Positions 35,364 to 64,000 of a stretch of DNA of 64,000 nucleotides are shown here, piece by piece. Made by a program: the position numbers and the translations under genes. The DNA comes from a plasmid. The notes beneath the pieces were generated by a model. The model was given only the letters and a program-made list of their open reading frames with translations, searched no databases and had not been told where the DNA came from. Location of the stretch: NCBI RefSeq assembly GCF_054482525.1, contig NZ_JBTHVG010000003.1, one strand, 5' to 3'. How positions within the stretch are numbered: the stretch's first letter is position 1; every line of letters begins with the position of its first letter.

Positions 35364-36614
35364 TTAAGTCCGATACAGTTCGGCGAGCTCATCCAGCATG
35401 GGGTTACTCTTATATCCCGGTGCGGCCGTAAAAAGGTTTCGGGAAATCGCCAGCCACTCCATGATTTTGTCCGTCGCCAGCCAACGTCTGCCAAGTCGCT
35501 CGGCTGCGATGGGGACTTTATGCAAGCCAGCGAAGGGATCTACAACAAGATCTCCCGGCTCTGTCAAAAACTCAATCAGAAACGCTGCAAGCCTGGTAGG
35601 AGACGTTGCACCGTGCAGCGGAAAACCGAGCTCGCGGGCAATGGAATGGCAAAATCTCGTATCAGCGCAGCTATTGCCGTAAAACAAAGTATTCTTGGGG
35701 ATCGTTCCTTCTGTTTTATTTCCAAAGGAACCGCTTTTAAGCTGGTACGCCCCATCACCATAAAAGGTCGTGCGATTTTCACCGCCTGCTGCCTGCAATT
35801 TTAGATGCTGGTCTGAATGCGGTTGTAGTACACGTAAGTTGTTTGAACGAACCTTACTCGCATCATTGGTAAACCACAGCACAGGCTCATACGATGAGCA
35901 GAGCTGCACCCGTTGCTTACATGCCCAGTGCGTTGGCGATGGGGGCTTACTGCGATTCACCCACTGAAGCCTGTCCATGAGCTCAAGCCCCAGCTTGTCA
36001 CATAATGCCAGTGTCAGACGCTCCAGATACAGAGAACGTGAAGGCCTACCCCTATTAAAGCTATCTTGAGTGATATTCAATGCCACACTTGCGCCCGGTA
36101 CAAGCTGTTTCACGATCGGTTCGAGGATACGCAGAAGCCAGTCAATATAAGCCTGCTCGCCACGCCCCCCTCCGTGCCCGTAGTCTCTTGAATTTCGAAG
36201 GAGGTAAGGTGGCGAGGTCAGGCAAAGATGAATTTGCTCGGTGATATTGCTGAAGAAGGCATAGGCGTTTCCAAAAACCGATGCCCCAAGAGAAGTTGAG
36301 AAACCGACAACACAGAGCTTTTCCCATGACTCATGCAGGTTTGTTTTCGTCTTAGAGGCGTATCTCCAGACGCCCCGTTTTTCTGGAACGCGTTCGATGA
36401 CCCCGGCCTGACGGAGAGTCTGCTGAAACCAGCGAACCTTATGTTTGACGCCGCTGGTTCTGGTTTTATCTGACCCAAATTCTTTCAGTTCGTGCAATTC
36501 GGCATCCGACATGCCAGTTTTACGCTGCACTTCGCGATAAAGCTCGTCGTTGGTCAACGGCGATTCGGAGGCAGCGTAGATATGCGCAATTAAGTCCGTA
36601 TTAATCGTACTCAT
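35364..36614 (-). CDS. DNA methyltransferase (amino-methyltransferase, N6-adenine or N4-cytosine, beta-class order)
   Basis: Motif IV TSPPY precedes the SAM-binding motif DPFAG near the C-terminus; 416 aa; no adjacent restriction endonuclease recognised. Confidence 0.65.
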   Translation of the reverse strand: MSTINTDLIAHIYAASESPLTNDELYREVQRKTGMSDAELHELKEFGSDKTRTSGVKHKVRWFQQTLRQAGVIERVPEKRGVWRYASKTKTNLHESWEKLCVVGFSTSLGASVFGNAYAFFSNITEQIHLCLTSPPYLLRNSRDYGHGGGRGEQAYIDWLLRILEPIVKQLVPGASVALNITQDSFNRGRPSRSLYLERLTLALCDKLGLELMDRLQWVNRSKPPSPTHWACKQRVQLCSSYEPVLWFTNDASKVRSNNLRVLQPHSDQHLKLQAAGGENRTTFYGDGAYQLKSGSFGNKTEGTIPKNTLFYGNSCADTRFCHSIARELGFPLHGATSPTRLAAFLIEFLTEPGDLVVDPFAGLHKVPIAAERLGRRWLATDKIMEWLAISRNLFTAAPGYKSNPMLDELAELYRT

Positions 36615-36782
36615 CAGCCATCCTAATGGGGATACAGTTATTATATCGGCCTGATGGTTGGAAGTGAGATTACTAAATCAGACCGATCTGGTTTGTTGAA
36701 GACTTTGCCAAATCATGCAGCACAGCTGGGCTTGCACAGAGCGAGCCGGGCTCCTTTAGCGGAGACACCTTCGCAAGTTGGA

Positions 36783-37403
36783 TTAATCAGCCTCAAGATT
36801 CTGGAACTCAATGAGCTTTTGCTCACACTCCTCCCTGCCCCACGATCCCTGCCAGTCACAGATGTCCCGGTACTTACTTTCCAGCTTATCCATCTGTGCG
36901 AGATTAGCTGTTGCGAAGTCTGTCCATATGTCATGCCAGCAAGCGTTGTACGTAACGCCAGCTGGTGGACAATACTCCATTGCATCAGCATTAATAATTT
37001 CAACGCGAAGATCGGTTGCAAACGAGGCTGCAACGAGGTTAATAACATCCTGTTCTTTTTCGATTACCGTGACATGGGTTACATCGTCTTTCTGAAGAAT
37101 GGCGTGGAGCACCATACCAAGACCAAGACCATTAATGAGCACCCGCCCGGTGGCTCGCTCTATAAAATCCTGGCAGGTTCGGATCTCCATCGGGGTATTG
37201 GACATCACCACATCCCAGCCGTTGGACAAGCGGCGATATCTACCGGGCGGGATAAACTCATCTGTATTACCAGTACACTCGGCACGAAGGGCGAGGGTCA
37301 GCGCCTTATCTGTGGTAATTTCGAAAGTGTCCAGTTTCCAAGTTCCGGACTTGCCGTCTTTAACGGGTAAATCAGAAAAGCAGCTCTTCATCGAGGCAAC
37401 CAA
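36783..37403 (-). CDS. Putative class I SAM-dependent methyltransferase
   Basis: Gly-rich loop VLINGLGLGMV followed by an acidic residue (VTVIEKE); 206 aa. Confidence 0.4.
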   Translation of the reverse strand: MVASMKSCFSDLPVKDGKSGTWKLDTFEITTDKALTLALRAECTGNTDEFIPPGRYRRLSNGWDVVMSNTPMEIRTCQDFIERATGRVLINGLGLGMVLHAILQKDDVTHVTVIEKEQDVINLVAASFATDLRVEIINADAMEYCPPAGVTYNACWHDIWTDFATANLAQMDKLESKYRDICDWQGSWGREECEQKLIEFQNLEAD

Positions 37404-37546
37404 AATTCCAGTAGTTTTGTTACGCTGAACCTACCACAAACCCGCTCTTAATGAAGGCATCAGGAGCGATAGCGATCTTTGAGGCATCGTTTAAAACAGC
37501 GGCATCCTGTAACAGACACCCGATATTTTTTTTAATGCCGCAGGTG

Positions 37547-37804
37547 TTAAAGGTAGCGTTGCAAAGTTGCAACATCTTCAGGGGCAACCTCCACGCAGCT
37601 CCTGACACTGTAGTGATTTTCGCCGTTGTAGTCATAAACCCCACCGTCTTCAAAACTCAGCTGTTCAACCTCGCCAGCACACTCGGAAATCAGTGCCGTC
37701 TGGCAAGCATTTTTCTCACAATCGCTGACGAGTATACGAACATAGCTTTTCTCATGGTCGCCGTTACGGTTCTGGATCTTTACGATAAAGTGTTTTTCAG
37801 ACAT
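37547..37804 (-). CDS. Small hypothetical protein
   Basis: 85-aa ORF. Confidence 0.4.
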   Translation of the reverse strand: MSEKHFIVKIQNRNGDHEKSYVRILVSDCEKNACQTALISECAGEVEQLSFEDGGVYDYNGENHYSVRSCVEVAPEDVATLQRYL

Positions 37805-37868
37805 TTGTGCCTCCAGCTCAGGTTGAGGTTAATTTAGCGTTGCCCCGGTTCACCGGGGCAAGAATAAA

Positions 37869-38297
37869 TCAACCCTTAATGAAATTGTGCCCCCAGGTGT
37901 TAGGCTTAAATGCCTGCTCTTTGATATATGTTTTCATTACCTTGCAGGTTTTTTTCAGGGCTTTGGTATTGGCATCGGTTACTGGGATAAAATGGCGAGA
38001 ATGACGGTTTTCCCGGTACTGCTTATCAGCGTTTGGGTCAATTGCTTCGCTTTGCAGGAGCCCTTCGTGCCTGCCAATTACTATTACGTAGTTCATTTCA
38101 CCTGAAACACGATCCGTGAGTAATTGAAGGGAAATATCAGCTGCTCGCGTGGCCTGGCTTGCAGATATTTTTGCATGCAAGAAAGCCCCCTTTCTGAATT
38201 TGGCCGGAGTTAGCCCTGTAATATCCTCAACACTAAAATTAAGTGAGGAAAGAATTGAAAATAAGTCGCAGCTAATGACTTCAGTATTATTAGGCAT
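37869..38297 (-). CDS. Hypothetical protein (size and context compatible with a small anti-restriction protein; unverified)
   Basis: 142 aa; promoter cassette upstream; no motif I can assign with certainty. Confidence 0.4.
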   Translation of the reverse strand: MPNNTEVISCDLFSILSSLNFSVEDITGLTPAKFRKGAFLHAKISASQATRAADISLQLLTDRVSGEMNYVIVIGRHEGLLQSEAIDPNADKQYRENRHSRHFIPVTDANTKALKKTCKVMKTYIKEQAFKPNTWGHNFIKG

Positions 38298-38319
38298 TTT
38301 ACCCGTCCCCGTCCATATT

Positions 38320-38370
38320 CATGATACGGTAATGATACCAGGTCGATATCATTACCTAATAACTTGGTGA
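38320..38370 (-). promoter_or_regulatory. Conserved promoter cassette (variant)
   Basis: AAGTTATTAGGT then TATCAT upstream of the start at 38297. Confidence 0.4.
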
Positions 38371-38391
38371 AAGAAAATCTGTAATTTTTAG

Positions 38392-38769
38392 TTAACTAAA
38401 ATTAATAGTCTCAATACTGCTCAAGAATTCTTTTTTTACGTCCGGTGTAAAAGGTATACGTTCAATGTATTTATAAAGTGTCGCAAATGTTTTGGGTTCA
38501 ATGTTTCGGGAGATAATGTCATCAATCGGATCTTCGAACATATTGATAAAGATATCGACATGCTGCTCTCCGCTTTCTGATGCCTTTGAAAGAAGACTGA
38601 CCACTTCAATGTAGCGATTATCCTGCTCTGCAATGAACAACCAGTGCCCTTCGTTAAAGGCGGGTGCAGCGCTGTAGCGTTTAACAACAATTTCTGAAAG
38701 ATTATATCCTGCCTGATTCAGCAGATTATTAAAGTTGAGTTGAGTTGAAATCACGTCTAACGTTTTCAT
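38392..38769 (-). CDS. Hypothetical protein
   Basis: 125 aa; AGGAGG upstream; promoter cassette with TATAAT -10. Confidence 0.45.
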   Translation of the reverse strand: MKTLDVISTQLNFNNLLNQAGYNLSEIVVKRYSAAPAFNEGHWLFIAEQDNRYIEVVSLLSKASESGEQHVDIFINMFEDPIDDIISRNIEPKTFATLYKYIERIPFTPDVKKEFLSSIETINFS

Positions 38770-38791
38770 AAAACCTCCTTTTCATCTGTAC

Positions 38792-38829
38792 TTATTATAC
38801 TGTTACCCAACCCCCAGCTAATAACCTCC
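38792..38829 (-). promoter_or_regulatory. Conserved promoter cassette
   Basis: GGAGGTTATTAGCT, about 17 nt, TATAAT upstream of the start at 38769. Confidence 0.45.
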
Positions 38830-38939
38830 CAGCAAATTTTCAGAAAAAAAACACCGCCTTTTATTTAAGATTGAACACATCCTTTTTAAATACCAACAAT
38901 GATTATGAAACCACAATGTAAGTGAAGCGCCATTATGGA

Positions 38940-38950
38940 AAAGTAACTTT
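38940..38950. promoter_or_regulatory. Palindrome copy
   Basis: AAAAGTAACTTTT, about 170 nt upstream of the gene starting at 38769. Confidence 0.5.
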
Positions 38951-39176
38951 TGTGCAGCTCATAAATTTTATTTATTAGTTACGTTCCTTTGTCTTGTGGT
39001 CGAAGTTCATCAGGCGAGGCCTAAGAAGAATATGTGTGGTTTCAGCCAATGCGGTGATCGGGCATTATAATTTGGTCGGGCTATTATACGTGGGTAAAGG
39101 TAGTGGTAGGGAGAGGATCAGGTTAAATTGCATTTTCCCGGTTGCCTTCCCTGGCCTACCGGTTTCAGGTCAGACG

Positions 39177-40124
39177 CTAAGACCAGCGGTAATACTTAAA
39201 GTAGTCCTCATTTACAGCCAAAAACTCCCTTAAACCGTTCATTAATCCCTTTTCAAACGCTGTAACGATAAACCGGTATCCGTCCAGTGTTTCAATGTAG
39301 TAGATCCCGCCCGGTGTTATTCCAACATGCAACACCTCGGCTGTCATCATAAACTGGCCTTCCGGAAAATCATGCGACAGGTATATAAAACCCGTCGTGG
39401 CCGGTGCGGGTGTGGCATTCACTAAGACACCGTTAAACTGCTGCCCGTGCCTCGCCGGTACAAGCTCACTTCCCCTGGTTGACTTATCGAGCAGCCCCTT
39501 AACATCTTTTTGCTCTTTAGATGAGGTATAGCCCCGCACATCACTCCCATCACCTGGGCGAGAGCCGGTGCCGACATGTGCAAGACGACGGTAAGCGCTG
39601 CGCATATTGATGTGGCAGGATGCCCCGGCTCTACCCTGAAGCCTTACGCCAAAATCTTCGCAAAGTAATAAAATCTGACGTAGCTGGTGTTCATACACGG
39701 ACGCAGAAAGTGAAAGGTTGAAACTGGAAAAGGTCAGTTCTAAAACCTTTTCCCGTTTGTCATTGAAATGTGCTTCCAGCCTGATGATTGGCTTTTCCGA
39801 CATTGCAAAAGCTTTGTCCGTTGCTCTGTACCGGCATTCATCTCCGAAACATTCTTCAACAACGCTGGCTATAACCGTGTCGTGATCGCCATCTTCCGGA
39901 GCTGGCACAAAGATTTCAAATTGTGCCGGTGTCTCCGGCTCCAGCAGAACGGGATATAAACGCGGAGAATTAAGCAATGCGCATTCAGAATTAATGAGCT
40001 TAACCCAGGCGCTTTTGTCGTCCGGATCCTTAAGCTGCTGTCCAAGGTTATCGCAAAAGTCTACTATCTGACGGGTATGCTCATCCGTGACTGCACAGAT
40101 CAGGTTAAGACCATGCGTGGCCAT
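39177..40124 (-). CDS. Hypothetical protein (about 315 aa from ATG at 40124; the listed ORF extends to a TTG at 40220)
   Basis: Long ORF downstream of the HigB-like gene; start uncertain. Confidence 0.45.
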   Translation of the reverse strand: MATHGLNLICAVTDEHTRQIVDFCDNLGQQLKDPDDKSAWVKLINSECALLNSPRLYPVLLEPETPAQFEIFVPAPEDGDHDTVIASVVEECFGDECRYRATDKAFAMSEKPIIRLEAHFNDKREKVLELTFSSFNLSLSASVYEHQLRQILLLCEDFGVRLQGRAGASCHINMRSAYRRLAHVGTGSRPGDGSDVRGYTSSKEQKDVKGLLDKSTRGSELVPARHGQQFNGVLVNATPAPATTGFIYLSHDFPEGQFMMTAEVLHVGITPGGIYYIETLDGYRFIVTAFEKGLMNGLREFLAVNEDYFKYYRWS

Positions 40125-40366
40125 ACTCAATTCCCGGGTTCGGGACTGGGAATTGATCGACCAGGGGTTAAGTGAAAGCGAAATAGGGCTTATGGAAGGG
40201 ACGACCGTCTCATTCTGCAAATCTGTAAGCTGGCAGTTCGCAGTAGGCTTCGGGGAAAGGGTACTAAATATGTAACTTGCCTATTGTTTAGTACTGGCCT
40301 GGATATAAAACATCGCGTCCATGCTTGTATCCCGGGATGAAATTGAAAATAGCTTCATTTTTAACC

Positions 40367-40663
40367 TTAATGGATGAGCGATTTATAGTCATGTGCTGAC
40401 AAATGGACATTATGTGCGCCATCATTCCATTCAAAGAATAATCGATACTTAGAGTTTACTCGAATGGAGGAATAACGGTTTGACGTCATTCTTAAGCGTT
40501 CATAACGCAAGCTGTTGGATAATAACTCCCGCTCACTCTGGACATTATCCAGCGTTTCGAGTCGACACAGAATCGCGTTAATAATTTCAGAAGGAATACC
40601 TGCCGTTGTTTTTCCATTACGGAAGAACTTTTCAAGCCGTCTGTCTTTAAATGAATGGATCAT
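40367..40663 (-). CDS. HigB-like toxin (RelE/ParE superfamily, plasmid-killer type)
   Basis: MIHSFKDRRLEKFF...GIPSE...SIRVNSKYRLFFEWNDGAHNVHLSAHDYKSLIH follows the HigB pattern MIKSFKHKGLKLLF...SITVRANWRITFQF..GDAYILNYEDYH. Confidence 0.6.
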   Translation of the reverse strand: MIHSFKDRRLEKFFRNGKTTAGIPSEIINAILCRLETLDNVQSERELLSNSLRYERLRMTSNRYSSIRVNSKYRLFFEWNDGAHNVHLSAHDYKSLIH

Positions 40664-40712
40664 AGTTCCTCCGTAATAATTGACCTTAAAATTAAATTAA
40701 AAGGGCTTTGAA

Positions 40713-41183
40713 TTAATGAATCCCTAAAATGCGGGCGGCGACTGCCAGCTGCTTATCACTTAACTGACGCTGGTGGGTTAAAGAAGACTTAAGGCTTTCC
40801 AGAAAATTATTACTGCTGGATTGCTGGGTGATTGCATCAACCATTTTTTGATGAGATCTGCACCATGCATTGAACGCAGAGTTGTGGGCGTTTTCAGTCC
40901 TCAAACGCTCGTTTTGCAAGGATGCTGACACTTTGCGGGCAGCTTGAGCATTAATGCGGTACAGCGCATTCAGCGTGTAAGCAGTGCGGGTCGTTTCGAG
41001 GCTGTAACCCGTGGCTTTACAAGCCATACAGCGACTTCTATAAAAATGCTTACGCTCTCCCCGACCATTGCATTTATCGCAAAGAATACGAAAAGTATAT
41101 TCCGCAGTACCTTTTACAGAATCAACACAGCGGATTTTTGCGCTGGAGATTTCAATTCCACTGCGATCATAATATTTGGTCAT
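40713..41183 (-). CDS. Zinc-ribbon hypothetical protein
   Basis: CDKCNGRG and CMACKATG Cys pairs; GGAGGAA upstream of ATG; 156 aa. Confidence 0.45.
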   Translation of the reverse strand: MTKYYDRSGIEISSAKIRCVDSVKGTAEYTFRILCDKCNGRGERKHFYRSRCMACKATGYSLETTRTAYTLNALYRINAQAARKVSASLQNERLRTENAHNSAFNAWCRSHQKMVDAITQQSSSNNFLESLKSSLTHQRQLSDKQLAVAARILGIH

Positions 41184-41199
41184 AATGTGATTCCTCCGG

Positions 41200-41252
41200 T
41201 TAGTTCTGGAGTAATCATGACAGAATGAATCTACTGGCTAATAACCTGAGAG
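41200..41252 (-). promoter_or_regulatory. Conserved promoter cassette
   Basis: CTCAGGTTATTAGCC upstream of the start at 41183; the -10 element is less clear. Confidence 0.4.
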
Positions 41253-41617
41253 TAAATATTTTAAAAAAACATTGAGAGAGGGTCTGCAAATTTATACACG
41301 AAGGATTCAAATATAATTTTGTTTAAAAAATTAAGAGCATTCTGAAGTAAAAGTGCATCAAAAAGCATTCATGGATAAATCATGTACTGGTGCCAGCCAT
41401 TTAAACGCGGGCATTGTTCCGGAGTGATTAAACGGTTTAGCATCATAGATTAAAACCAAAAGGAAGGCGTCCTTCCCGTCTCGGGAATATTACTTTCCCG
41501 TTTGCAATTTAAGAGCCACTTAATGAGAAAGTAATAATTAAGTCATGCTCAACTCTACATATTACATTGAGGATGGCGTAACAGGGTACGGCATACTACC
41601 GCACCCTTCTGAAGAGC

Positions 41618-44008
41618 TTATGTTTGAGGGAATTCTATAGCAAATGTGGCCGTGCCAGATTGACCACTTACAGCGGGAGTAACGGGATACGTGCGCTCTT
41701 CACCATTACCAAGATCCAGTGACAGCGATTTAGTTTCACCAGGCTGGACCGTAACTCCGGCAACCGTAACGCCGAACTGGGCATTTTTCTGAACAGTCAG
41801 GGTTCCGTTTAACTGTCCGGTAATGATAGAACCGTCCTGACGCCGCAACACACTGGTTCGGATGATGGCCAGCGGCGTGTTGTCCGTTGCTTTCAGTGCT
41901 ACGGCTGTGGCCAGCGTCTTGAGATTATCCAGCATAATCAGATTCGCAGGCTGGTAGGTAAAATTAAGCGTTTTAGTGGTCCGGTTACCTGATTCGTCAA
42001 TAGCCAGTGCCTCCAGATGATACATCTGTCCCGATTCGTCAGTGTTGGGGAAGATTCTGGGGTATTCCGGAATAAAGACATCCTTGGATAACGGCGTGAA
42101 TGCCAGGGTGACCTTTTCAGAGTTAGGTCCACCAGCGAGCTGAAGCGATGTCAGGGAAGCATCCCCAGAGGCATCAGTAACGCTTATGCGAAGGTTCTCA
42201 AGCCCTTTAACCAGTTTTCCTTCTGCGTCTGCGCCATTAAAACTGAACGCGATAACCGGAAGCGTTGAGTCAATTTTCAGCGGTGCATTAAGCGTTTTGG
42301 TTCCGGTGTTTCCAACAAGATCCGTGGCAGAGACGCTAACCACCGTATAATCCCCGTCCGGTAGACCAGCGTATGAGAAGGTGGCGTTTTTGGTTTTATA
42401 ATCGCTTTCACTGACGGTCACAGGCTTCAGCGTGAAAGGTTCCCCCCGGGCATTTTTAAGGGTGGCTTCGAAAACTTTGGTATCCCAGTAGCTGATGTTC
42501 CAGGCGTTGACGCGATCATTATCGGTGGCCGTCATAGTGATTGTCTTGGAGGCCTTGTTTACCTGAGCGACATTAACCACCGGTGGGTTGTTATCCCAGA
42601 TAACCGTAAAATTACCAGCAAGCGCATCGAATATGCTGTCACCATCTTTTCCCGAGTAAAGGTGCAGATACTCAAATCCTTTGTCACTGGTGTAGTTGAA
42701 GTTAACCGTCATCTCGCATGAACTTTGTCCGATAGGTATAGTGCAGAACCAGGCTGCATTTTTTACCGTTCTGAACTTTTGCACGTATGGTCGGGGTTCA
42801 GCGGTTACCTTTATGCGGCTAATGGTGGCGGTTTTAACGCTGATTGAGGCCTGAGTTAACCACTCACTGGTATCACTCCGGTACATCTCTTTAGCCACTA
42901 TCTTCGGGGCTATTTCCATCGCCGGGGCTGGAGTGAAGTTGAGGGAGTTATGATGAATTCGTCTTACTCCTCCTGCCAGAGTCTGGAATTCATGATAAGT
43001 ATCCCCCACATTGGGATATATGTATTTGAAAGTATAAATATTATAAGTGCTATCGGACGTCTGGAAATTCGAGTCCGCCCAGCCATATTTGGAACCGTTA
43101 ACAGCAGTAAAGTCACTTTTTTTCCTTAATACCCGTACGGAAATAGGGTTCTGGAAGACGGTCATGCCAGACTGATAAGTGACCCATGATCCGGTAGTGG
43201 CGTCCTGCACCTGGATGATATCGTCAGGCTTAACCCGATCAATTACGCTTCGGCGGCTTAGTTCGATCCTGTTTCCCGCTTTGTCATAAAGGTAGATCCC
43301 CACTTTATATTCAGAGCGGTTTTCCGGTGCCAGGGCATTGCTGCTTGCGTCGGCGACTTGAACGGTTACGCTACCTTCCACTGTATTAATTTCCGCTGGC
43401 TTTTTACGCTCCACTCCAGCGGCATCGGTTATGAAATATTCAGCATTAGCAAGCCCGGAACCTTTATCACTCAGTCCATTAAAGACCAGTGCCTGGACGC
43501 TGGCGTACTGCATACCGGCTGGTACTGAAGTGAAGATCGCTTCGCTGCCAAAGTTCCACCCGTTTCTCGTATAACTTATGGTACCCGTTGCCGGAGGCGT
43601 TCGGTCAATTGCAAGCGGGTAATCCTGCCGGGAGACCTCCTTCCCTTGCAAGTCGGTAATCACCTCTCTGAGGGTGAAGCTATCTTCTCCCATCGCTGGT
43701 ACGGTCAGAGTCTTGCCGTAATAATCAAAGCCTGTCGAAGATGTGGTACGGTCATCTACGGTAACCAGGCTGCTTTTCGTGCTCCAGATGAGGCTCCCGT
43801 CACTTTTCAGCAGACTGAGCGTAATATAACGGTCCAGACCGGAAATAACGGCAACGTCAAAGCTCGTTACCGGATTAATCCATACGGATGCAGGCGATAC
43901 GGTCTTTTTAACGTTCAGGGTATCTTTAAAGCTGAATTCTGCGATTTCAGCGGAAGCTCCTGCGCTGAAACCTGCAAATGCAATAAGCAGGGCTAGTTTG
44001 ATTTTCAT
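41618..44008 (-). CDS. Secreted Ig-like (Big-domain) surface protein, paralog 1 of 3
   Basis: Signal peptide MKIKLALLIAFAGFSAGASA with AGGAG upstream; repeated D-x-(A/S)GN Ig-like motifs; conserved ISGLDRY N-terminal and LDLGNGEERTYPV C-terminal segments shared with the other two. Confidence 0.6.
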   Translation of the reverse strand: MKIKLALLIAFAGFSAGASAEIAEFSFKDTLNVKKTVSPASVWINPVTSFDVAVISGLDRYITLSLLKSDGSLIWSTKSSLVTVDDRTTSSTGFDYYGKTLTVPAMGEDSFTLREVITDLQGKEVSRQDYPLAIDRTPPATGTISYTRNGWNFGSEAIFTSVPAGMQYASVQALVFNGLSDKGSGLANAEYFITDAAGVERKKPAEINTVEGSVTVQVADASSNALAPENRSEYKVGIYLYDKAGNRIELSRRSVIDRVKPDDIIQVQDATTGSWVTYQSGMTVFQNPISVRVLRKKSDFTAVNGSKYGWADSNFQTSDSTYNIYTFKYIYPNVGDTYHEFQTLAGGVRRIHHNSLNFTPAPAMEIAPKIVAKEMYRSDTSEWLTQASISVKTATISRIKVTAEPRPYVQKFRTVKNAAWFCTIPIGQSSCEMTVNFNYTSDKGFEYLHLYSGKDGDSIFDALAGNFTVIWDNNPPVVNVAQVNKASKTITMTATDNDRVNAWNISYWDTKVFEATLKNARGEPFTLKPVTVSESDYKTKNATFSYAGLPDGDYTVVSVSATDLVGNTGTKTLNAPLKIDSTLPVIAFSFNGADAEGKLVKGLENLRISVTDASGDASLTSLQLAGGPNSEKVTLAFTPLSKDVFIPEYPRIFPNTDESGQMYHLEALAIDESGNRTTKTLNFTYQPANLIMLDNLKTLATAVALKATDNTPLAIIRTSVLRRQDGSIITGQLNGTLTVQKNAQFGVTVAGVTVQPGETKSLSLDLGNGEERTYPVTPAVSGQSGTATFAIEFPQT

Positions 44009-44505
44009 GGGTTGTCTCCTGATCAGGTTCCCCATGATACTTTTTCAGTGTTCGAGATCTTTTCGGGAAAATAGCTAATTTTAATGTTTTTCTTTTCTGC
44101 CCGGCGGGACCTGTTTTGTTCCATTTTTATCAGTGAATGTAATGAGACCGATTCGTCCACTGTTAACAGTGTAAAAGCGAGGTTGAAAGCCAGCTTTGAG
44201 AAGGTTTTCAATAGCTGAAAAAAAATCTTTTTTGAGCATTGGTTTCAAGATGGTTTTCCTTTTATGCCCGGTGCCGCCGGGACGGTGGCATTAAATATAC
44301 GCCATGTAAGTAAATTAATTTTTACCCATTTGATTGTCAATACAAACAAAAAATAAACCATGTTTATTATTTTACCAGCGATGCTATTTTAAAGTCCGTC
44401 TAAAATAAAAAACCAAAAAGTTAAATTTGAAGCCATCCTTCCTAAATTCATTTCTTGCGCATATTAGCCCCTGCTTTAAGTATATAATTTTTGAAAAAGT
44501 TGTCT

Positions 44506-44545
44506 GGAGGTTATTAGCTCGTGCATCTGGATTGTTAATATAAAG
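44506..44545 (+). promoter_or_regulatory. Conserved promoter cassette, plus-strand copy
   Basis: GGAGGTTATTAGCTC then about 17 nt to TAATAT, upstream of the gene at 44569. Confidence 0.45.
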
Positions 44546-44568
44546 CCAACACAGAAAAGGAAAACAAA

Positions 44569-45333
44569 ATGTATAAATTAGTATCTCCTCGTGAACTGAC
44601 TGAGATTATTACCGGTTTACTGCTTAAACCTGAACTCCTTGGTGAGCTGGACTCACCAGAAAAGCATCGGATGTTTATGGCAGATTTAGGCCGGGTGGTG
44701 GCAGAACATTGTGGAGGTCTGGTAAACAGCGTCGTCTTGCCAGGAGCTGAAGTTACAGTGCCGGATGGGTTACCGCTTAACGGCCAGCCAGTACGTTATC
44801 TCGGAATCAAAGAGAGCATCCCTCACCTCCTTGTAGAGCCTGATGCTTCCTTACCTTCGCTCGCTAAAAACGTCTGGATGTATGCAGATCCTGAAGGCTG
44901 GAAAGAACATTTTGGAGCTGAGGAAGACTGCCTTACTCATGAAATGATGCAGCTGTTCCGTAAAGGTATCCAGGCTCTTCAGAAGGAGCATGATACCCCT
45001 GAAATTAGCCTCACACTTCAGGACTGGCGCCTGGAGGAGGAAACACTGAGAGAAGAGGACAGTCAGGCCTATCAGGTCAGCGTTACCGGCCAACATAACA
45101 TCCACTGTGAAGTTGTTAACAAGGAAGGTAACCCCTGTTTTGGTGTCATGTTCGAAATCGATCAGGGTGTGCCTGCCTTACACATCAACACCGGCGGGGA
45201 TATGTTGCTCCACATTCATTGCGCCCATAACGGACTCGTTCTGACCCCTGATGCAAGCGGTCAGCGATTTGAGAAGGCTCCCGTTGACCGCTTCGCTTAT
45301 AACAGCCCATCCCTGCTGTTGTCTGCCGACTAA
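44569..45333 (+). CDS. Hypothetical protein
   Basis: 254 aa; AAAGGAAAA upstream. Confidence 0.5.
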   Translation: MYKLVSPRELTEIITGLLLKPELLGELDSPEKHRMFMADLGRVVAEHCGGLVNSVVLPGAEVTVPDGLPLNGQPVRYLGIKESIPHLLVEPDASLPSLAKNVWMYADPEGWKEHFGAEEDCLTHEMMQLFRKGIQALQKEHDTPEISLTLQDWRLEEETLREEDSQAYQVSVTGQHNIHCEVVNKEGNPCFGVMFEIDQGVPALHINTGGDMLLHIHCAHNGLVLTPDASGQRFEKAPVDRFAYNSPSLLLSAD

Positions 45334-54892: not shown

Positions 54893-55575
54893 TGGATCAT
54901 TGTGATGATCCATATCTGTGCATAAGTTCTACCTAAAAAAACGACTCCACTCATTAAAACTTGGCAAAAACTCTTTGCATACAATGACCTGCAACTCTTA
55001 TCAACAACGGATCAGATCAAGTTAAAAAGATCTAATGAAAAGTCACTACTATTGTCGCTCTGATCACTACTGATGTCAAAAAACTCATTACCAACGTTAT
55101 AATAATCACTACTAATGTCAAAATAATCACTACTGTTGTCACTGATCACGTCTCAGGCCTTGTGCCGTCTGGCCTGGAGGCAGCGGGGATCTCTTTTGAT
55201 CTATCAGGAACACTAAGGTACTAATTATTGGAACTACCTTGTGGAAAATGGGGATAAATAAATGCTTAGTTCTTATACAGGTCTCAACTTGCCTCCCTGA
55301 TAAAAACTGTCGTCAAAGCTAAATCGCAGCCACAGGCATTTTCGGTGGATAAATTTTTGAGAAATAGAAGCATACATGCAGACTCGTGTCGCAAGTAATT
55401 GAAAGTAATGATTTATTTAAATAATGCGAGTCACCTTACCTCACAGTGGAAGTTTAAGTCTAACCTCACTACCATTGTCACTTAAAATCATTACCAACGT
55501 CGAAATAGTCTCTACCATTGTCTTTTAAGTCACTCCCGTTGTCACTTATGTCGCTACTGTTGTCAGTGACAATGC
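54893..55575 (-). promoter_or_regulatory. Putative replication origin and repA control region
   Basis: GATC cluster (54893-55040); five direct ~21-bp iterons TCACTACnnTTGTC (55043-55145); DnaA-box-like GGTGGATAA (55345-55353) within an AT-rich stretch; five more iterons (55466-55575). Confidence 0.55.
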
Positions 55576-55930: not shown

Positions 55931-58387
55931 TTATTTTAATTCTTCAATGTTAATCATGAACTCAGATCTGCCAGTAAGGCCGGATACAGCAGGGAAAATA
56001 GGAAAGCTACGGCTGTCCCCGAGCCCCAAATCCAGTTGAAGCTCTTTGCTTTCACCTGGCATCGCAGAAACGCCATTTACAGTCACGCCGAATGCAGCGT
56101 CCTTACGGACAGTAAGCACTGCGTCCTGAAGCCCTGTAGCGATTGAACCATCCTTTTTACGCAGCTGGCTGGCATACAGAACAGCCAGAGCAGTATTGTC
56201 AGATGTTTTGAGAGAAGCATTGACAGCTAAGGTTTTCAGATTCTCTAGCCTGACGAGATTGTTTGGAAGGTAGTTAAATTCGACTGAGCTTTCTTTAACG
56301 TTGTTCATCTCATCTTTGGCCTGAACTGTGAGAGTGTATGTTTCGCCTTCATTAAGAGACGGAAAGATCTTGGGATAATTAGGTGCATACAGGTTGTTTC
56401 CCAGATTCACCCAAGACAATTCCACCGCATCAGAAACAGGGCCACCGCGAAGAGTCATACGGCTTAAGGATGGTTTAGTTAGAGCATCGGTGAGCTGTAT
56501 ACGGACGTTCTCCAGCCCATATACTGTTACGTTTTTGCTGATCGGTTTTCCTTCGTAGCTAATACTTACAGATGGTGCTGTATTATCAACGACAACTGTT
56601 TGATAAGGGAGGTTACCGGTATTGTTGAATGTATCTTGGGCATTAATCACCACGTTATAACTGCCTTCTGGTACCTCTTTCATGTTGAACTCATACGTGT
56701 AGTTCCCAGACGCCATATTTCTACCTGTTTGTTTGCCGGTTACGCTTATTTCTGCGTTGTTACGGTTTTTATCTGACAACCAAACTCGATTTACATAAAC
56801 ATGGTCGAAATATGAACCATCTCCAGGTTGATTCACGTAAACCTGGAGAATGTTGGTGGTTTCATTGTAATCAAATCCAGTGACGGAGGGACCCAGTGTA
56901 TGCCAGGCTATATTCTCCCATATAGGGGCAAAGAAGGTTGCTTCGGTGGTTGACCTTACTTCATAGCCACTATGAAGATAACCGGTAGTGCCATTTATAA
57001 TATCCTGGGGCAAAGAGACGGTACAGGTTGTTGAGCCAGCTGGAATACTGCATGTTGCTCCGCCAGTGATTTTTTGATCATATGGCCTGGCCTGTACATT
57101 GAATCGGATATTAGTAAGTTTTATAGGCATATCAGATGCCTTGAACAGGTTCCAGTTTACGCTGTTGAACCATGTTCCATCAGCCTTTTGTCGTTCTATG
57201 GGTGAACTTCCCCAAGCCGGACTCTTTACAGAGGCAGGATCCCAGTTGAGCCAGCTGGCATACTGACCAAGATCTCCTCCAGACCATTGATATGTATTCA
57301 CAGGTCTATAGTAGTTTCCATCTAAGGCACCCTGTGGCAGCTTAACTTCCACGTAGACATAGGTGGCATCTTCGGAAAGGACCTGTACTCCGCCATAGTT
57401 ATTGGTAATGCTCATGCCACCATTTCGATATGGCTTCCAGTTAGTTCTTGGGATACGTATAACCAACTTGTAGGGGTTTTCCAGCACTGTAAGGCCTCGT
57501 TTAAACGGGACGTATCCCGAAGAAATGCCGGGTACAACACTGGTGCTTACACGTGAGTCATGAACTGCAAATGGCGTAAATTCTCCCATTTGATCGTCAT
57601 ATAAAAACCGCTGGGGAGGAATGTTAAGCGTATTTCCTGCCAGGTCCGTAACGATGAAATTGAAGGTGAATTCTTCATCAAGATCACTTGAGGGCATGCC
57701 AGCCTGGGTGTTCATATCTTTAATCCACGGATAGACCGCACGTTTATTGGCTGTGTCATAACTCAGGTTATTGTCGGAGACCACAGAACCATTACTTCGT
57801 TTAATGACAAGACGGATCTTGTCAATTCCACTAGCATCCTCAATACCGTCTGCAAATATAGAAAACTGGCCACTACCGCCTCGGCCCAACTCCCAAAGTG
57901 GCCCAGAAAGTACCATGTCGTAACCTGCGTTTTGACTCGGATAAATACTCTTATAGCGTGGAGGAGTTGTATCAACGATGAAATGATAAGTAGATGTGCT
58001 CACTACAGTCTGGCGAATATCCAGAGTTTCATTGACTACAGTAAAGGTCCCTTCTCCGAGCGCCGGTAGAACCATATCCTTTCCATAGTATTCTGTTCCA
58101 TCGGCAGCAACGATACGATCTGCAACGCTCGTTTTGGTCGAGACGGAGGAATACATAACCTTTTTATCGCTGTCTCGTGTGACCGTCACTCGCTCGTACC
58201 GATCAAGACCCGATATCAAGTTCAGAGTCAAAACACCAGCGGGATTAAGATATGTTTGTGTTGCAGGTTTGATATTCCGAACAGCCTTATTGGTATCTGT
58301 AAATGAGTAGCTAAATACCTGAGCATGTGCCGAAGATACAGTAGCAAGGGCAGTTGCAACCATGCAGCCAATTAGAGTTTTACGCAT
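55931..58387 (-). CDS. Secreted Ig-like (Big-domain) surface protein, paralog 3 of 3
   Basis: Signal peptide; ISGLDRY; D-x-AGN repeats; C-terminal LDLGLGDSRSFPIFP; GGAG upstream of ATG. Confidence 0.6.
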   Translation of the reverse strand: MRKTLIGCMVATALATVSSAHAQVFSYSFTDTNKAVRNIKPATQTYLNPAGVLTLNLISGLDRYERVTVTRDSDKKVMYSSVSTKTSVADRIVAADGTEYYGKDMVLPALGEGTFTVVNETLDIRQTVVSTSTYHFIVDTTPPRYKSIYPSQNAGYDMVLSGPLWELGRGGSGQFSIFADGIEDASGIDKIRLVIKRSNGSVVSDNNLSYDTANKRAVYPWIKDMNTQAGMPSSDLDEEFTFNFIVTDLAGNTLNIPPQRFLYDDQMGEFTPFAVHDSRVSTSVVPGISSGYVPFKRGLTVLENPYKLVIRIPRTNWKPYRNGGMSITNNYGGVQVLSEDATYVYVEVKLPQGALDGNYYRPVNTYQWSGGDLGQYASWLNWDPASVKSPAWGSSPIERQKADGTWFNSVNWNLFKASDMPIKLTNIRFNVQARPYDQKITGGATCSIPAGSTTCTVSLPQDIINGTTGYLHSGYEVRSTTEATFFAPIWENIAWHTLGPSVTGFDYNETTNILQVYVNQPGDGSYFDHVYVNRVWLSDKNRNNAEISVTGKQTGRNMASGNYTYEFNMKEVPEGSYNVVINAQDTFNNTGNLPYQTVVVDNTAPSVSISYEGKPISKNVTVYGLENVRIQLTDALTKPSLSRMTLRGGPVSDAVELSWVNLGNNLYAPNYPKIFPSLNEGETYTLTVQAKDEMNNVKESSVEFNYLPNNLVRLENLKTLAVNASLKTSDNTALAVLYASQLRKKDGSIATGLQDAVLTVRKDAAFGVTVNGVSAMPGESKELQLDLGLGDSRSFPIFPAVSGLTGRSEFMINIEELK

Positions 58388-58619: not shown

Positions 58620-58881
58620 TGATAGACGCTGCTCCTTTATGTTTGCCAATTGTGCTGATATGTTTGTAAATTCAAGGAAGCGAGATTTTAAAAGCATCTG
58701 TTGAGTCAAATTTATGTAAAATAACAGGGAAACCATCACTTCTAGGTTGAGGAAACCCAATGTTATACATGCTCTTATGCTGTTTTCTGATAGACTGGCC
58801 CCCTGAATCTCCAGACAACCAATATCACTTAAATAAGTGATAGTCTTAATACTAGTTTTTAGACTAGTCATTGGAGAGCAG

Positions 58882-59247
58882 ATGATTGATGTCTTAGGAC
58901 CGGAGAAACGCAGACGGCGTACTACACAGGAAAAGATCGCTATTGTTCAGCAGAGCTTTGAACCGGGAATGACGGTCTCCCTTGTTGCCCGGCAACACGG
59001 TGTGGCAGCCAGCCAGTTATTTCTCTGGCGCAAGCAATACCAGGAGGGAAGTCTTACTGCTGTGGCCGCAGGAGAACAGGTCGTTCCTGCCTCTGAACTT
59101 GCTGCTGCCATGAAGCAGATTAAAGAACTCCAGCGCCTGCTCGGCAAAAAAACGATGGAAAATGAACTCCTTAAAGAAGCCGTTGAATACGGGCGTGCAA
59201 AAAAGTGGATAGCGCACGCGCCCTTATTGCCCGGGGATGGGGAGTAA
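58882..59247 (+). CDS. insC: IS2 orfA (InsC)
   Basis: [18 protein letters not shown]...; GGAGAG upstream. Confidence 0.85.
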
Positions 59248-60110
59248 GCTTAGTCAGCCGTTGTCTCCGGGTGTCGCGTGCGCAGTTGCACGTCATTCTC
59301 AGACGAACCGATGACTGGAAAGATGGTCGCCGCAGCCGTCACTCAGATGATACGGATGTGCTTCTCCGTATACACCATGTTATCGGAGAGCTGCCCACGT
59401 ATGGTTATCGTCGGGTATGGGCGCTGCTTCGCAGACAGGCCGAACTTGATGGTATGCCTGCTATCAATGCCAAACGTGTTTACCGGATCATGCGCCAGAA
59501 TGCGCTGTTGCTTGAGCGAAAAACCGCTGTACCGCCATCGAAACGGGCACATACTGGCAAAGTGGCCGTGAAAGAAAGCAATCAACGATGGTGCTCTGAC
59601 GGGTTCGAGTTCCGCTGTGATAACGGAGAAAAACTGCGAGTCACGTTCGCGCTGGACTGCTGTGACCGTGAGGCACTGCACTGGGCAGTCACTACGGGCG
59701 GCTTCGACAGTGAAACAGTACAGGACGTAATGCTGGGAGCGGTGGAACGCCGCTTCGGCAACGAGCTTCCGGCGTCTCCAGTAGAGTGGCTGACGGATAA
59801 TGGTTCATGCTACCGGGCTAATGAAACACGGCAGTTTGCCCGGATGTTGGGGCTTGAACCGAAGAACACGGCGGTGCGGAGTCCGGAGAGTAACGGCATA
59901 GCAGAGAGCTTCGTGAAAACGATAAAGCGTGACTACATCAGTATCATGCCTAAACCAGACGGGTTAACGGCAGCAAAGAACCTTGCAGAGGCGTTCGAGC
60001 ATTATAACGAATGGCATCCGCATAGTGCACTGGGTTATCGCTCGCCACGGGAATATCTACGGCAGCGGGCCAGTAATGGGTTAAGTGATAACAGGTGTCT
60101 GGAAATATAG
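59205..60110 (+). CDS. insD: IS2 orfB (InsD), DDE transposase
   Basis: 301 aa; overlaps orfA in the -1 frame. Confidence 0.85.
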
Positions 60111-60264
60111 GGGCAAATCCATCTGATGCTCAACAGTACATTCGTTATGTTCAGAGCAATGTCTGCAATAAGTAAAGGATCCGCTAAAGAAAACCGGTCT
60201 GAAATATCGCTGATAGTCCTAGCAACACTTGGAATCGCATCACCATTCAGGTAATGACTCCAAC

Positions 60265-60768
60265 TTATTGATAGTGTTTTATGTTCAGATAATGCCCGAT
60301 GACTTTGTCATGCAGCTCCACCGATTTTGAAAACGACAGCGACTTCCGTCCCAGCCGTGCCAGGTGCTGCCTCAGATTCAGGTTATGCCGCTCAATTCGC
60401 TGCGTATATCGCTTGCTGATTACGTGCAGCTTTCCCTTCAGGCGGGATTCATACAGCGGCCAGCCATCCGTCATCCATATCACCACGTCAAAGGGTGACA
60501 GCAGGCTCATAAGACGCCCCAGCGTCGCCATAGTGCGTTCACCGAATACGTGCGCAACAACCGTCTTCCGGAGCCTGTCATACGCGTAAAACAGCCAGCG
60601 CTGGCGCGATTTAGCCCCGACGTATCCCCACTGTTCGTCCATTTCCGCGCAGACGATGACGTCACTGCCCGGCTGTATGCGCGAGGTTACCGACTGCGGC
60701 CTGAGTTTTTTAAGTGACGTAAAATCGTGTTGAGGCCAACGCCCATAATGCGGGCGGTTGCCCGGCAT
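60265..60768 (-). CDS. insB: IS1 InsB (expressed as an InsAB' frameshift fusion)
   Basis: 167-aa ORF overlapping insA. Confidence 0.85.
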
Positions 60769-60962
60769 CCAACGCCATTCATGGCCATATCAATGATTTT
60801 CTGGTGCGTACCGGGTTGAGAAGCGGTGTAAGTGAACTGCAGTTGCCATGTTTTACGGCAGTGAGAGCAGAGATAGCGCTGATGTCCGGCGGTGCTTTTG
60901 CCGTTACGCACCACTCCGTCAGTAGCTGAACAGGAGGGACAGCTGATAGAAACAGAAGCCAC
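60687..60962 (-). CDS. insA: IS1 InsA
   Basis: 91 aa with Zn-finger CPSC...CSHC. Confidence 0.85.
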
Positions 60963-61034
60963 TGGAGCACCTCAAAAACACCATCATACACTAAATCAGT
61001 AAGTTGGCAGCATCACCCACCATTCATTGTCGCA

Positions 61035-61838: not shown

Positions 61839-62280
61839 GCTTTACCTCAGTGGCTGAATATTGATGGTTAATATCTTTAATCACCCGTAAGCACTTAGTG
61901 CATACCTTAGTTCGATTTGTCTGCTTGTCCAGAGTGTATTTAACTTCAAGTTGACCTCCAGCATTAAGCAAAGTGAGCATCTCATCTTCTAACACGCTTC
62001 GGTAAATGGTCTTGGCCGAGAGTGTGCCCGGTAACGAGTACTCAACATAATTGTTTGAAACTCTTACCGATTTAGGGATTTTACCACTGAGCTGGGTTTC
62101 ATTCGTTGAAGGCATTACAGTTACTTTAATCACAGTTGCCGGTGACCAGAAATCCTGATAACGCACTTTATGAATTTTATCAGCTCTAAGGCCTAACCAC
62201 ACATTTCCGGCGATAAGAACAATAAGCAATCCATAAACTGATCGTCGAATGTTACGCCTTTTAATCACAATGTCCCCCAT
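61819..62280 (-). CDS. Hypothetical protein with N-terminal transmembrane anchor
   Basis: 153-aa ORF. Confidence 0.45.
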   Translation of the reverse strand: MGDIVIKRRNIRRSVYGLLIVLIAGNVWLGLRADKIHKVRYQDFWSPATVIKVTVMPSTNETQLSGKIPKSVRVSNNYVEYSLPGTLSAKTIYRSVLEDEMLTLLNAGGQLEVKYTLDKQTNRTKVCTKCLRVIKDINHQYSATEVKHGQSKI

Positions 62281-62328
62281 CCCTCAAATATCATTCTAAA
62301 TAACTGCACCAGGATATCATGAGCGTAA

Positions 62329-62505
62329 TTAATAGAATTCTTCATAACCGGGGTTTTCAGTTGAGTTTGCGGACTCTTTACTTTGCGGTTTCTCACCCTC
62401 TAGTTGAGTATCCCTGACAGGCTTGGATTTACCCATGCTCCTCTGAAAGGTATCCATAACAAACTCAATATCTTCTTCTGGCAGGCTGGTGGGTTGGTTG
62501 CTCAT
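62329..62505 (-). CDS. Small acidic protein (58 aa), translationally coupled to the upstream methyltransferase gene
   Basis: ATG overlaps the TGA of the upstream gene (ATGA); hand-translated as MSNQPTSLPEEDIEFVMDTFQRSMGKSKPVRDTQLEGEKPQSKESANSTENPGYEEFY; below the ORF-track size cut-off. Confidence 0.3.
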   Translation of the reverse strand: MSNQPTSLPEEDIEFVMDTFQRSMGKSKPVRDTQLEGEKPQSKESANSTENPGYEEFY

Positions 62506-64000
62506 AGGACTTCCTCTTGTTGAATACGTTCGGCGTACAGGATGCGAACCGAAACGGTCGTGTTTTCAAACTCGTTCTCAAAAACGTCCATCCATTCCGT
62601 CCGGAATTCTTCCCCCAAAAGGTTATCGAGCCCCTGAAGAGATAATGGAAGAACGGCTGCTAGAGATCCCCCGGCTGCGAGATGAGATGCAGCTGCCTGG
62701 AGATGCAGCCTGGCCCGGTTATCGGCAAAAGGTGGGTTCATCACGACATAATCAAACTTCTTCTGTTGATTAGACTTAGACCATGTGAGGAAGTCAGCTT
62801 CTGTCGTATCGTATCCCTTAGCCCGGGAGATAAGGCAATTCAAAGTATCAAGCTCGATGCCAGTAACGATCACACCGGCAGGGAATGATTTAAGCAAATC
62901 CGCATGGCCAATATTAGGCTCCAGGAGGGTATCCCCTTCCCCTGCACCAAGCAGGGAAGATACATATTCGCTGATTCGGCAAGATGAAGGGTAAAACTGA
63001 TGCGATACAATATCAGGCATCTCCCCTATCTGGCCGATGTAACGAATAACCTCACACGGATCATAGGAAAATGTCACATCGTATTTTGTTACTGTTGCCC
63101 CTAAGAACCGAAGGGTGTCAGCGGCAACACTCGAAGATTTGCGTTCGGCGAGAGACCCTAAAGATGTCCAGCAACTCCATTTATTGTCCCCGTCATTTTT
63201 AAACATCAGTTCAGAAAGCTGCATCCGGGTATCAAAGTCGATGCACTGCTTAAGTACAGGGAATGCCTCCAAAGATTTCTTGCTATGAGCCATACGGTCG
63301 GCAGGTAATGCCAGCGGTACGATAGCTGATAAAATATTGTTAAGCCGCTCGGCGATATCAGGGTGGACGTCAATATGCATTGATCCATTTTTGTAAACCC
63401 TGAAACGAATACTGTTGCCATCGATGCAGATCCATTTTCTGAACCCCTCATGTTCGACCAACGCCTCAACCAATGATTTGGTGTTATGGATCGCCTTCAC
63501 CTGTTCGCCACGGAAGAATGCGCATATAACGCGGAGCTCGCTCAGCGGTGAAATGCCAGACTCTTTAAAATCCACCCTTAATTTCTGCCAGGGGTATTTA
63601 GACGGCTCGCAAACTCCGGTAGTGATCATGCGGGTGGAGAACCCAAAAGCTTTGTTTGTCTTGTGACTGCGGCTCAGAGACTGGAAGACGTCGTAAACCC
63701 TTTCTTTAATAAATTGATTGCGGTCATTAAGCAAAGCAACGACTGTGCCCACTACAGCGTCAGCTGTGAAATCAGGGATCACCTGAGGCGGCATAATATA
63801 ACGGTCGGCCGTAAACTGCTTATCCCATTCGTTACGTTTGGCATCCGACATGATAGGCAAAACATCAGTGAGTGCCATAACGCATTTCCAGTATTCTGAT
63901 CTCAGAGCGTTTTCTGCGAACAAAGCATCCGCTTCTGAGATGCTGTGGTTGTAGCCTGAGAGATAAGAATAAAGTTTCTGGTGATTGTGGGTTTTGAACT
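62502..64000 (-). CDS. Protein with C-terminal N6-adenine methyltransferase domain; N-terminus outside the window
   Basis: Motif I LEPNIGHADL and motif IV YVVMNPPF in the C-terminal third; the frame stays open upstream of the listed TTG through nt 64000. Confidence 0.55.
   Translation of the reverse strand, partial: FKTHNHQKLYSYLSGYNHSISEADALFAENALRSEYWKCVMALTDVLPIMSDAKRNEWDKQFTADRYIMPPQVIPDFTADAVVGTVVALLNDRNQFIKERVYDVFQSLSRSHKTNKAFGFSTRMITTGVCEPSKYPWQKLRVDFKESGISPLSELRVICAFFRGEQVKAIHNTKSLVEALVEHEGFRKWICIDGNSIRFRVYKNGSMHIDVHPDIAERLNNILSAIVPLALPADRMAHSKKSLEAFPVLKQCIDFDTRMQLSELMFKNDGDNKWSCWTSLGSLAERKSSSVAADTLRFLGATVTKYDVTFSYDPCEVIRYIGQIGEMPDIVSHQFYPSSCRISEYVSSLLGAGEGDTLLEPNIGHADLLKSFPAGVIVTGIELDTLNCLISRAKGYDTTEADFLTWSKSNQQKKFDYVVMNPPFADNRARLHLQAAASHLAAGGSLAAVLPLSLQGLDNLLGEEFRTEWMDVFENEFENTTVSVRILYAERIQQEEVL

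Follow-up and report, generated by a model that had tools for sequence, protein, structure and literature searches.

Predicted solitary DNA methyltransferases in the backbone of an IncHI2 conjugative plasmid and their putative role in protection against restriction

Methyltransferase genes without a restriction partner are usual for large conjugative plasmids, and protective methylation is already an established idea there. Orphan methyltransferases were found to be a leading functional class among plasmid establishment genes (PMC11541004); all the tested plasmids larger than 90 kb carry at least one of them, and one IncC plasmid carries five (PMC11602122). The plasmid dcm of an IncC plasmid protects against EcoRII (PMC11602122), an IncA/C plasmid without its three methylase genes lost its transfer (PMC6555945), and M.EcoGIX acts on single strands at entry and shows no activity on duplex DNA (PMC7736820). 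For IncHI2 plasmids, "at least two DNA methylases" are mentioned in passing (PMC5320650), and in the literature no paper was found characterising the IncHI2 methyltransferases or citing their RefSeq accessions. In our study, a stretch of 64,000 nucleotides of plasmid DNA (contig NZ_JBTHVG010000003.1, assembly GCF_054482525.1), referred to here as the window, was analysed. A first-pass annotation had described it as carrying four DNA methyltransferase genes, which are named here M1 to M4 (Table 1). All four open reading frames were found where that annotation had placed them, and RefSeq annotates the same genes on identical IncHI2 plasmids, with the labels 'site-specific DNA-methyltransferase' for M1, 'methyltransferase' for M3 and 'DUF4942 domain-containing protein' for M4.

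The analysis has reduced the count of four to three predicted DNA methyltransferases (M1, M3 and M4) and one gene, M2, which encodes a methyltransferase fold not recognisable as DNA type. We consider it rather likely, with a probability of about 0.6, that M1, M3 and M4 are solitary modification genes of the IncHI2 backbone which protect against restriction. These enzymes would methylate the plasmid's own DNA, and incidentally that of the host, with N4-methylcytosine (m4C) and N6-methyladenine (m6A). A plasmid entering a new cell would then be wholly or partly resistant to the restriction enzymes of that cell, and such resistance would widen its host range.

Table 1. Positions of the methyltransferase genes and of the other listed features in the window.
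Feature	Position	Strand	Description
MobH relaxase gene, 3' part	1 to about 2856	+	window starts inside the gene
traD	2856-4940	+	coupling protein
HNH / endonuclease VII-like protein	28154-28687	-	177 amino acids; phrog_2118 2e-55; same minus-strand array
M1	35364-36614	-	416 amino acids; Mrr_N winged-helix (residues 17-84) and beta-class N4/N6 amino-methyltransferase (residues 128-390)
M2	36783-37391	-	202 amino acids; class I S-adenosylmethionine (SAM)-methyltransferase-fold protein; 168 bp upstream of M1, same strand
Hypothetical protein	44569-45333	+	254 amino acids; directly upstream of M3; matches no family
M3	45414-46175	+	253 amino acids; predicted N6-adenine-type; FFPTP, LEPxxG, NPPF; conserved N-terminal domain of about 75 residues
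Two small genes	46269-47164	+	87 and 195 amino acids; downstream of M3, co-oriented; phrog_11469 and phrog_660, function unassigned
repHI2 initiator gene	53735-54823	-	flanked by three Ig-like-domain genes
M4	62502 to beyond 64000 (end about 64193)	-	563 amino acids; DUF4942 (residues 96-290), NPPF methyltransferase module (residues 318-555)

The earlier description of M1 as a beta-class amino-methyltransferase is well supported by its profile matches, which were obtained with Pfam N6_N4_Mtase (PF01555, E 1.3e-21), Pfam Mrr_N (E 1.8e-6) and the PADLOC model MTase_II (1.2e-46). The order of its motifs is that of the beta-class permutation, the catalytic SPPY at residue 134 standing before the SAM motif VVDPFAG at residue 357. 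M.PvuII (1boo) was found to be by far the closest solved structure (PDB phmmer, E 2.3e-39); residues 105-392 of M1 align to residues 10-291 of M.PvuII with the inter-motif region included, and the alignment spans the SPPY/SPPF catalytic motif and the C-terminal FxGxG SAM motif in the beta-class order. The Ser-Pro-Pro-Tyr motif is typical of N4-cytosine enzymes. Because of this motif and of the homology with M.PvuII, M1 is probably an N4-cytosine methyltransferase. On the other hand, M1 differs from M.PvuII in the added N-terminal Mrr_N winged-helix and in its neighbours, which are not pvuIIR- or pvuIIC-like, and its site need not be CAGCTG. Depletion or enrichment of CAGCTG was also considered as a pointer to the specificity of M1 and was dropped, the site count being uninformative on the M1 target.

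Full-length homologues of M1, with the winged-helix included, were found in 2278 plasmid records, mostly conjugative, among them homologues with identities of about 50% in IncC plasmids, about 52% in IncHI1B plasmids and about 45% in Pseudomonas megaplasmids. The flanking genes of these homologues all differ among the IncC, IncHI1B and Pseudomonas plasmids, and therefore a conserved partner is disfavoured. The 'N-6 DNA methylase' genes which adjoin the M1 homologues in IncC and Pseudomonas plasmids were considered as possible relatives of M3 and were rejected at E 1e-4.

M3 is predicted to be an N6-adenine-type methyltransferase, in agreement with the first-pass annotation. It carries FFPTP, LEPEFG (LEPxxG) at residue 105 and NPPF at residue 172; its matches include the PADLOC Type II methyltransferase models (about 1e-12), PADLOC mad2 (4e-14) and Pfam MTS (8e-6), and its best solved relatives are M.TaqI and another adenine DNA methyltransferase (7vru). 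In case of M4, the window carries residues 67-563, identical to those of the reference plasmid. Pfam places DUF4942 (PF13708, E 1.7e-21) before the C-terminal NPPF methyltransferase, and the full-length match is with phrog_6263, 'DNA methyltransferase' (1.4e-111). The AlphaFold model of M4, with a predicted local distance difference test (pLDDT) score of 80, matches METTL5, M.BseCI, M.TaqI (26% identity), HsdM subunits and CamA, and these structural matches run through the catalytic domain only. DUF4942 has no relative by sequence among the solved structures.

The C-terminal domain of M4 had been called a paralog of M3, and the profile comparison has confirmed this: the two were related by BLASTP (E 5e-12) and by hhalign of the family profiles (probability 99.9%, E 9.2e-33), with residues 3-250 of M3 aligned to residues 318-555 of M4, so that M3 and the C-terminal domain of M4 are predicted to be one TaqI-like NPPF adenine-methyltransferase module. 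The TaqI-type motif order X (FxxTP) - I (ExxxGxG) - IV (NPPF/Y) was found in a Rossmann fold. The shared unit exceeds the Rossmann core, because nearly all of M3 aligns to M4. A conserved small domain stands before the core, at residues 1-75 of M3 (window 45414-45638) and at about 318-392 of M4; it has the family motif LDRxLYxRTNKVLEAAGGKWNRKxKAHxF, common to M3 and M4, and matches no family. With this domain both proteins may bind DNA or a partner. Neither M3 nor M4 was found to have a C-terminal target-recognition domain, the stretch of about 75 residues after NPPF completing the Rossmann sheet. In this they differ from the gamma-type N6-adenine enzymes M.TaqI, M.BseCI, CamA and HsdM; they have instead the N-terminal subdomain and, in M4, also DUF4942, and no cognate nuclease or specificity subunit was recognised beside either gene.

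Full-length M3 was found in 1185 records and full-length M4 in 2112, and the M4 family is also present in SSU5-like phage-plasmids. The M3 module recurs inside giant phage proteins (PHROGs, profile length 1259-3925 residues). Moreover, M3 homologues of about 250 residues, with 46-49% identity, were found in the early-left operon of four lambdoid prophages, between N/cI and cIII/recT or beside int, with neighbours which differ each time; one of them lies near a phage Dam gene, and other relatives adjoin an integrase or a YqaJ exonuclease. In phages, the lambdoid early-left region is the usual site of anti-restriction genes and of orphan Dam genes (the position of ral). The phage-early position of the M3 relatives thus fits a protective role.

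Some of these matches would also suit the view that M3 and M4, like M2, are not DNA enzymes and modify RNA or protein instead. Their strongest Pfam match is the 'MTS' small-methyltransferase family, the best NCBIfam match is PrmC, and JGI names relatives 'predicted RNA methylase'. However, the closest solved sequence relatives are the DNA enzymes M.TaqI and 7vru, the PADLOC Type II methyltransferase models match at 1e-12, and the set of FxPTP, LEPxxG and NPPF motifs together with the phage-early and ParB-adjacent contexts suits DNA modification. Hence, a target other than DNA appears improbable for M3 and M4.

The situation is different for M2, for which the first-pass annotation was right in calling the gene SAM-methyltransferase-like and not in counting it among the DNA methyltransferases. 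The AlphaFold 2 model (pLDDT 96.8) has the class I SAM-methyltransferase fold, with a GxGxG SAM loop, a seven-strand Rossmann-like fold and an acidic residue after strand 2. The profile matches of M2 are weak (spermidine synthase at 1e-5; Pfam E values of 0.0017 or worse) and PADLOC gave nothing. M2 has no (D/N/S)PP(Y/F/W) motif, and neither this motif, nor PCQ/ENV, nor structural proximity marks it as a DNA methyltransferase. Structurally, it is closest to guanidinoacetate N-methyltransferase (GAMT), to O-methyltransferases of small molecules and to spermidine synthases, and none of the top 60 neighbours is a DNA methyltransferase. M2 differs from the GAMT / spermidine synthase (PABS) group as well, being only 202 residues long and 13% identical to GAMT, and belongs to a distinct phage and plasmid family (phrog_15480 'methyltransferase', 4.6e-34) with 4079 representative clusters at E <= 0.001 and relatives in phages of widely differing hosts. 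The context of the homologues gave no functional clue, since the metagenome contigs are too short and the phage contexts hold only small uncharacterised genes. From its modelled structure, M2 is a genuine SAM-fold enzyme which is not countable as a DNA methyltransferase, and its target is most likely other than DNA bases, for example a small molecule or a protein. The RefSeq start of M2 is the ATG at 37391; the TTG at 37403 chosen in the first pass lies four codons upstream.

The open reading frames flanking the methyltransferase genes were scanned against PADLOC, PHROGs and NCBIfam and, as two concatenated pseudo-proteins, against Pfam. No nuclease or defence family was found in any of them by these four collections, which agrees with the earlier statement that there is no recognisable restriction partner, although diverse restriction enzymes can escape recognition. 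The profile search thus found no cognate endonuclease gene adjoining a methyltransferase as in a Type II restriction-modification system, and this is not proof of its absence. Because the neighbours have no nuclease match and the flanks are not conserved among the homologues of M1 and M3, the three genes are classed, on comparative grounds, as predicted solitary ('orphan') methyltransferases. The nearest recognisable nuclease to M1 is the HNH protein of Table 1, 6.7 kb off with many genes between; the other, a NERD-type protein, is encoded where the Tra1 operon ends. Directly upstream of M4, and already beyond the window, there is a ParB-like gene (L001:45477-46640). The gene order around M3 is preserved in another IncH-type plasmid, and its 254-residue neighbour is kept there and not in the prophages. 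A terminator-like hairpin follows the M3 gene group at 47258-47278; the promoter and terminator scans of 34000-47600 gave counts no better than shuffles.

At least one of the genes could instead be part of an unrecognised restriction or defence system, with the nuclease among the hypothetical neighbours; the candidates are the 254-, 87- and 195-residue products around M3, the small proteins around M1 and M2, and the HNH protein. Restriction enzymes often evade profile searches, the 254/258-residue and 87-residue neighbours of M3 are kept in the other IncH-type plasmid, M3 and M4 both match the PADLOC mad2 model, and IncHI2 plasmids alter the phage type of their host (PMC5320650). Against this, no neighbour matches a nuclease or defence family, the partners are not conserved beyond IncH plasmids, the HNH gene is far from M1, and the mad2 matches span the methyltransferase core only. 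A hidden nuclease is, therefore, considered very improbable.

The window covers conserved backbone DNA of a conjugative plasmid of the IncHI2 (R478) type and extends from the MobH relaxase gene beyond RepHI2. Bases 35000-47500 were found to be 100% identical to several hundred plasmids and matched 1158 plasmid records in all, most of them conjugative MOBH/MPF_F plasmids with an IncHI2A replicon from Escherichia, Salmonella and Enterobacter; no match of these bases to phages was found. The alignment of the window with one such record, NZ_CP024143.1, is collinear except for insertion sequences. The mobI gene lies just left of the window, and we infer that the origin of transfer (oriT) is placed there. 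A long run of small hypothetical genes, mostly on the minus strand, extends between the Tra1 side and the RepHI2 replicon.

Next to this replicon, a cluster of nine GATC sites was found at 54895-55198, just upstream of repHI2, where about 1.9 would be expected per 500 bp; the window average is 3.4 per kb. The first-pass annotation had proposed epigenetic control linked to the GATC-rich origin, and the methyltransferases could in principle serve such a control of replication or transfer. The cluster is real, M3 and M4 flank the replicon, and methylation alters the transfer of some plasmids (PMC11602122). However, M1 to M4 gave no match with the Dam and alpha-class profiles, M1 being PvuII-like and M3 and M4 TaqI-like, and relatives of M3 occur in prophages without such an origin. 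A separate Dam-family methyltransferase gene, missed in the first pass, was found about 2 kb past the right end of the window (L001:47010-47822, plus strand, equivalent to window positions of about 65974-66786; PADLOC 1.4e-69), and GATC is methylated by the host Dam in any case. A control based on GATC would depend on the host Dam or on this gene, and not on M1 to M4; the epigenetic explanation is accordingly regarded as quite unlikely for them.

The protective half of that earlier interpretation has fared better. The solitary status of M1, M3 and M4, the MOBH backbone, the phage-early relatives of M3 and the literature on other plasmids all fit with it, and it is from these that we infer protection. 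Several observations weigh against it. The genes are placed downstream of mobI-mobH-traD, at 35-66 kb from oriT and on its relaxase side; the relaxase usually marks the lagging, last-transferred side (PMC11541004), and by this rule they would fall outside the leading region. M3 is on the strand opposite to M1, M2 and M4, and the PvuII site CAGCTG shows no depletion, with 40 sites where 16 would be expected. In the IncHI2 plasmid pSSE-ATCC-43845 of S. Senftenberg ATCC 43845, which carries identical M2 and M3, a variant of M4 and the Dam gene, M1 is split into two coding sequences of 204 bp and 1038 bp (L011:17335-18584); since the gene is disrupted there, M1 is dispensable for the maintenance of that plasmid. 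Moreover, the methylome of this strain obtained by SMRT (single-molecule real-time) sequencing contains six m6A motifs, each of which was ascribed to genes on the chromosome (PMC5347186); site-specific methylation by M3 and M4 was thus not visible in ATCC 43845 under those conditions. They may have been unexpressed under those conditions, may methylate non-specifically or at a low level, or may not be DNA enzymes; their expression is probably conditional, because neither of them can be credited with a motif in the published methylome.

As to the direction of entry, M1, M2 and M4 stand in minus-strand arrays facing oriT and M3 on the plus strand, an arrangement which is informative only if the plus strand is transferred; no paper was found that reports in which direction IncHI plasmids are transferred. 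The label 'leading-region genes', which the minus-strand array aimed at oriT had suggested, is not claimed here, as the window starts in the relaxase gene.

The silent methylome also bears on a variant of the protective explanation with a different mechanism, in which M3 and M4 would be adenine methyltransferases that are either non-specific or specific for single strands, acting only transiently on the entering or replicating strand. They would then be functional analogues of M.EcoGIX or M.EcoGII from the unrelated TaqI-like lineage. Both proteins lack a target-recognition domain and have structural matches to the catalytic domain only, both genes are present in ATCC 43845 yet no host methylome motif is attributed to either, giant phage proteins contain the M3 module as one of their internal domains, and M.EcoGIX sets the precedent of an enzyme that leaves duplex DNA alone and acts on single strands (PMC7736820). 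However, the conserved N-terminal subdomain, and DUF4942 in M4, could give sequence recognition, lack of expression explains the methylome equally well, and the genes are off the expected leading side. This mechanism is, on balance, possible and rather unlikely. The broader proposition that a widespread TaqI-like module of plasmids and phages, without a target-recognition domain, is represented by M3 and by the C-terminal half of M4 and might be non-specific or act only on single-stranded or newly entered DNA, and that the M2 family could have a non-DNA target, is likewise put forward only tentatively.

Other features of the backbone were also noted. Over about 35 kb (about 8910-44248) the genes are mostly small and hypothetical and are nearly all on the minus strand, oriented to Tra1/oriT; the array resembles an establishment or anti-defence array, yet it is on the relaxase side of oriT. 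It is broken by a plus-strand block (about 15837-18139) which holds Hok, RelE/ParE toxins, DUF3085, DUF957 and DUF6012. Within the same co-oriented array, a protein of 794 residues (29796-32180, minus strand) resembles DndC/PAPS-reductase PP-loop enzymes in its N-terminal third (residues 60-364; PADLOC DndC 4e-38; NCBIfam DndC 6e-34, under the cut-off), its C-terminal stretch of about 430 residues matching nothing assigned. It has no dndA, dndB, dndD or dndE neighbours and could have a further role in DNA modification or anti-defence. A RelE/ParE-family toxin gene (40367-40663, minus strand) is preceded by a gene for a 156-residue protein (the pair spanning 40367-41183, minus strand) with a weak DnaJ-type CXXCXGXG zinc-finger signature (Pfam E 0.016, NCBIfam 5e-4), which is an unusual candidate antitoxin. 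Three large proteins with Ig-like (Big) domains, at 41618-44008 (minus strand), 47629-50049 (plus strand) and 55931-58387 (minus strand), stand on either side of RepHI2 and of the genes around M3; such proteins are reported as required for IncHI conjugation (PMC6764697). The backbone is interrupted by insertion sequences, either in comparison with the reference plasmid or internally, at 18547-19883, 50707-52394, 58837-60110 and 60250-61017; these are an IS4-family element (open reading frame 18595-19713), an IS91-family element (open reading frame 51024-52223) which sits between an Ig-like gene and repHI2, IS2 and IS1.

IncHI2 plasmids are major carriers of mcr, extended-spectrum beta-lactamase (ESBL) and heavy-metal resistance genes in E. 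coli, Salmonella and Enterobacter, and entry into hosts with differing restriction systems is part of their success. If the protective role is true, M1, M3 and M4 are candidate host-range determinants and could also confound methylome studies. As a general principle such protection is established, and the three genes add uncharacterised examples to it and not a new idea. The main outcomes are the corrected gene count, with three DNA-type genes, one of other fold and a fifth, Dam-family gene past the window, and the definition of the M3/M4 module; further, the genes were placed on the relaxase side of oriT and found to be silent in one published methylome. The thread which could lead beyond the routine is this module without a target-recognition domain together with its apparent methylome silence. 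If it is indeed non-specific or active only on single-stranded or newly entered DNA, evolution would have solved the task of M.EcoGIX a second time and independently, and the missing methylome motif would be explained. Separately, the 4000-cluster phage and plasmid family of M2 could modify a non-DNA target.

Among the known systems outside conjugative plasmids, the capsid-borne methyltransferase-helicase DarB of phage P1 is alike as an adenine-methyltransferase-type domain of a mobile element used against restriction. DarB was considered as a relative of M3 and M4 on account of the PHROG giant-protein matches and was rejected, as there is no significant similarity and BLASTP gave a 23-residue match only, around motif IV (E 0.012). 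With the lambdoid early-left anti-restriction genes the M3 homologues share their position, whereas M3 itself stands in a plasmid operon with IncH-specific uncharacterised genes. The comparison of M3 and M4 with M.EcoGIX is one of published properties only (PMC7736820). The orphans of conjugative plasmids, namely M.EcoGIX of pESBL, dcm1-3 of IncA/C and dam/dcm of pKAZ3, are likewise solitary, backbone-borne and several per plasmid, and a role in protection or establishment has been demonstrated for them or put forward. The IncHI2 genes differ in being uncharacterised and in lying on the relaxase side of oriT and not in a defined leading region. M1 has among the IncC plasmids a homologue of about 50% identity.

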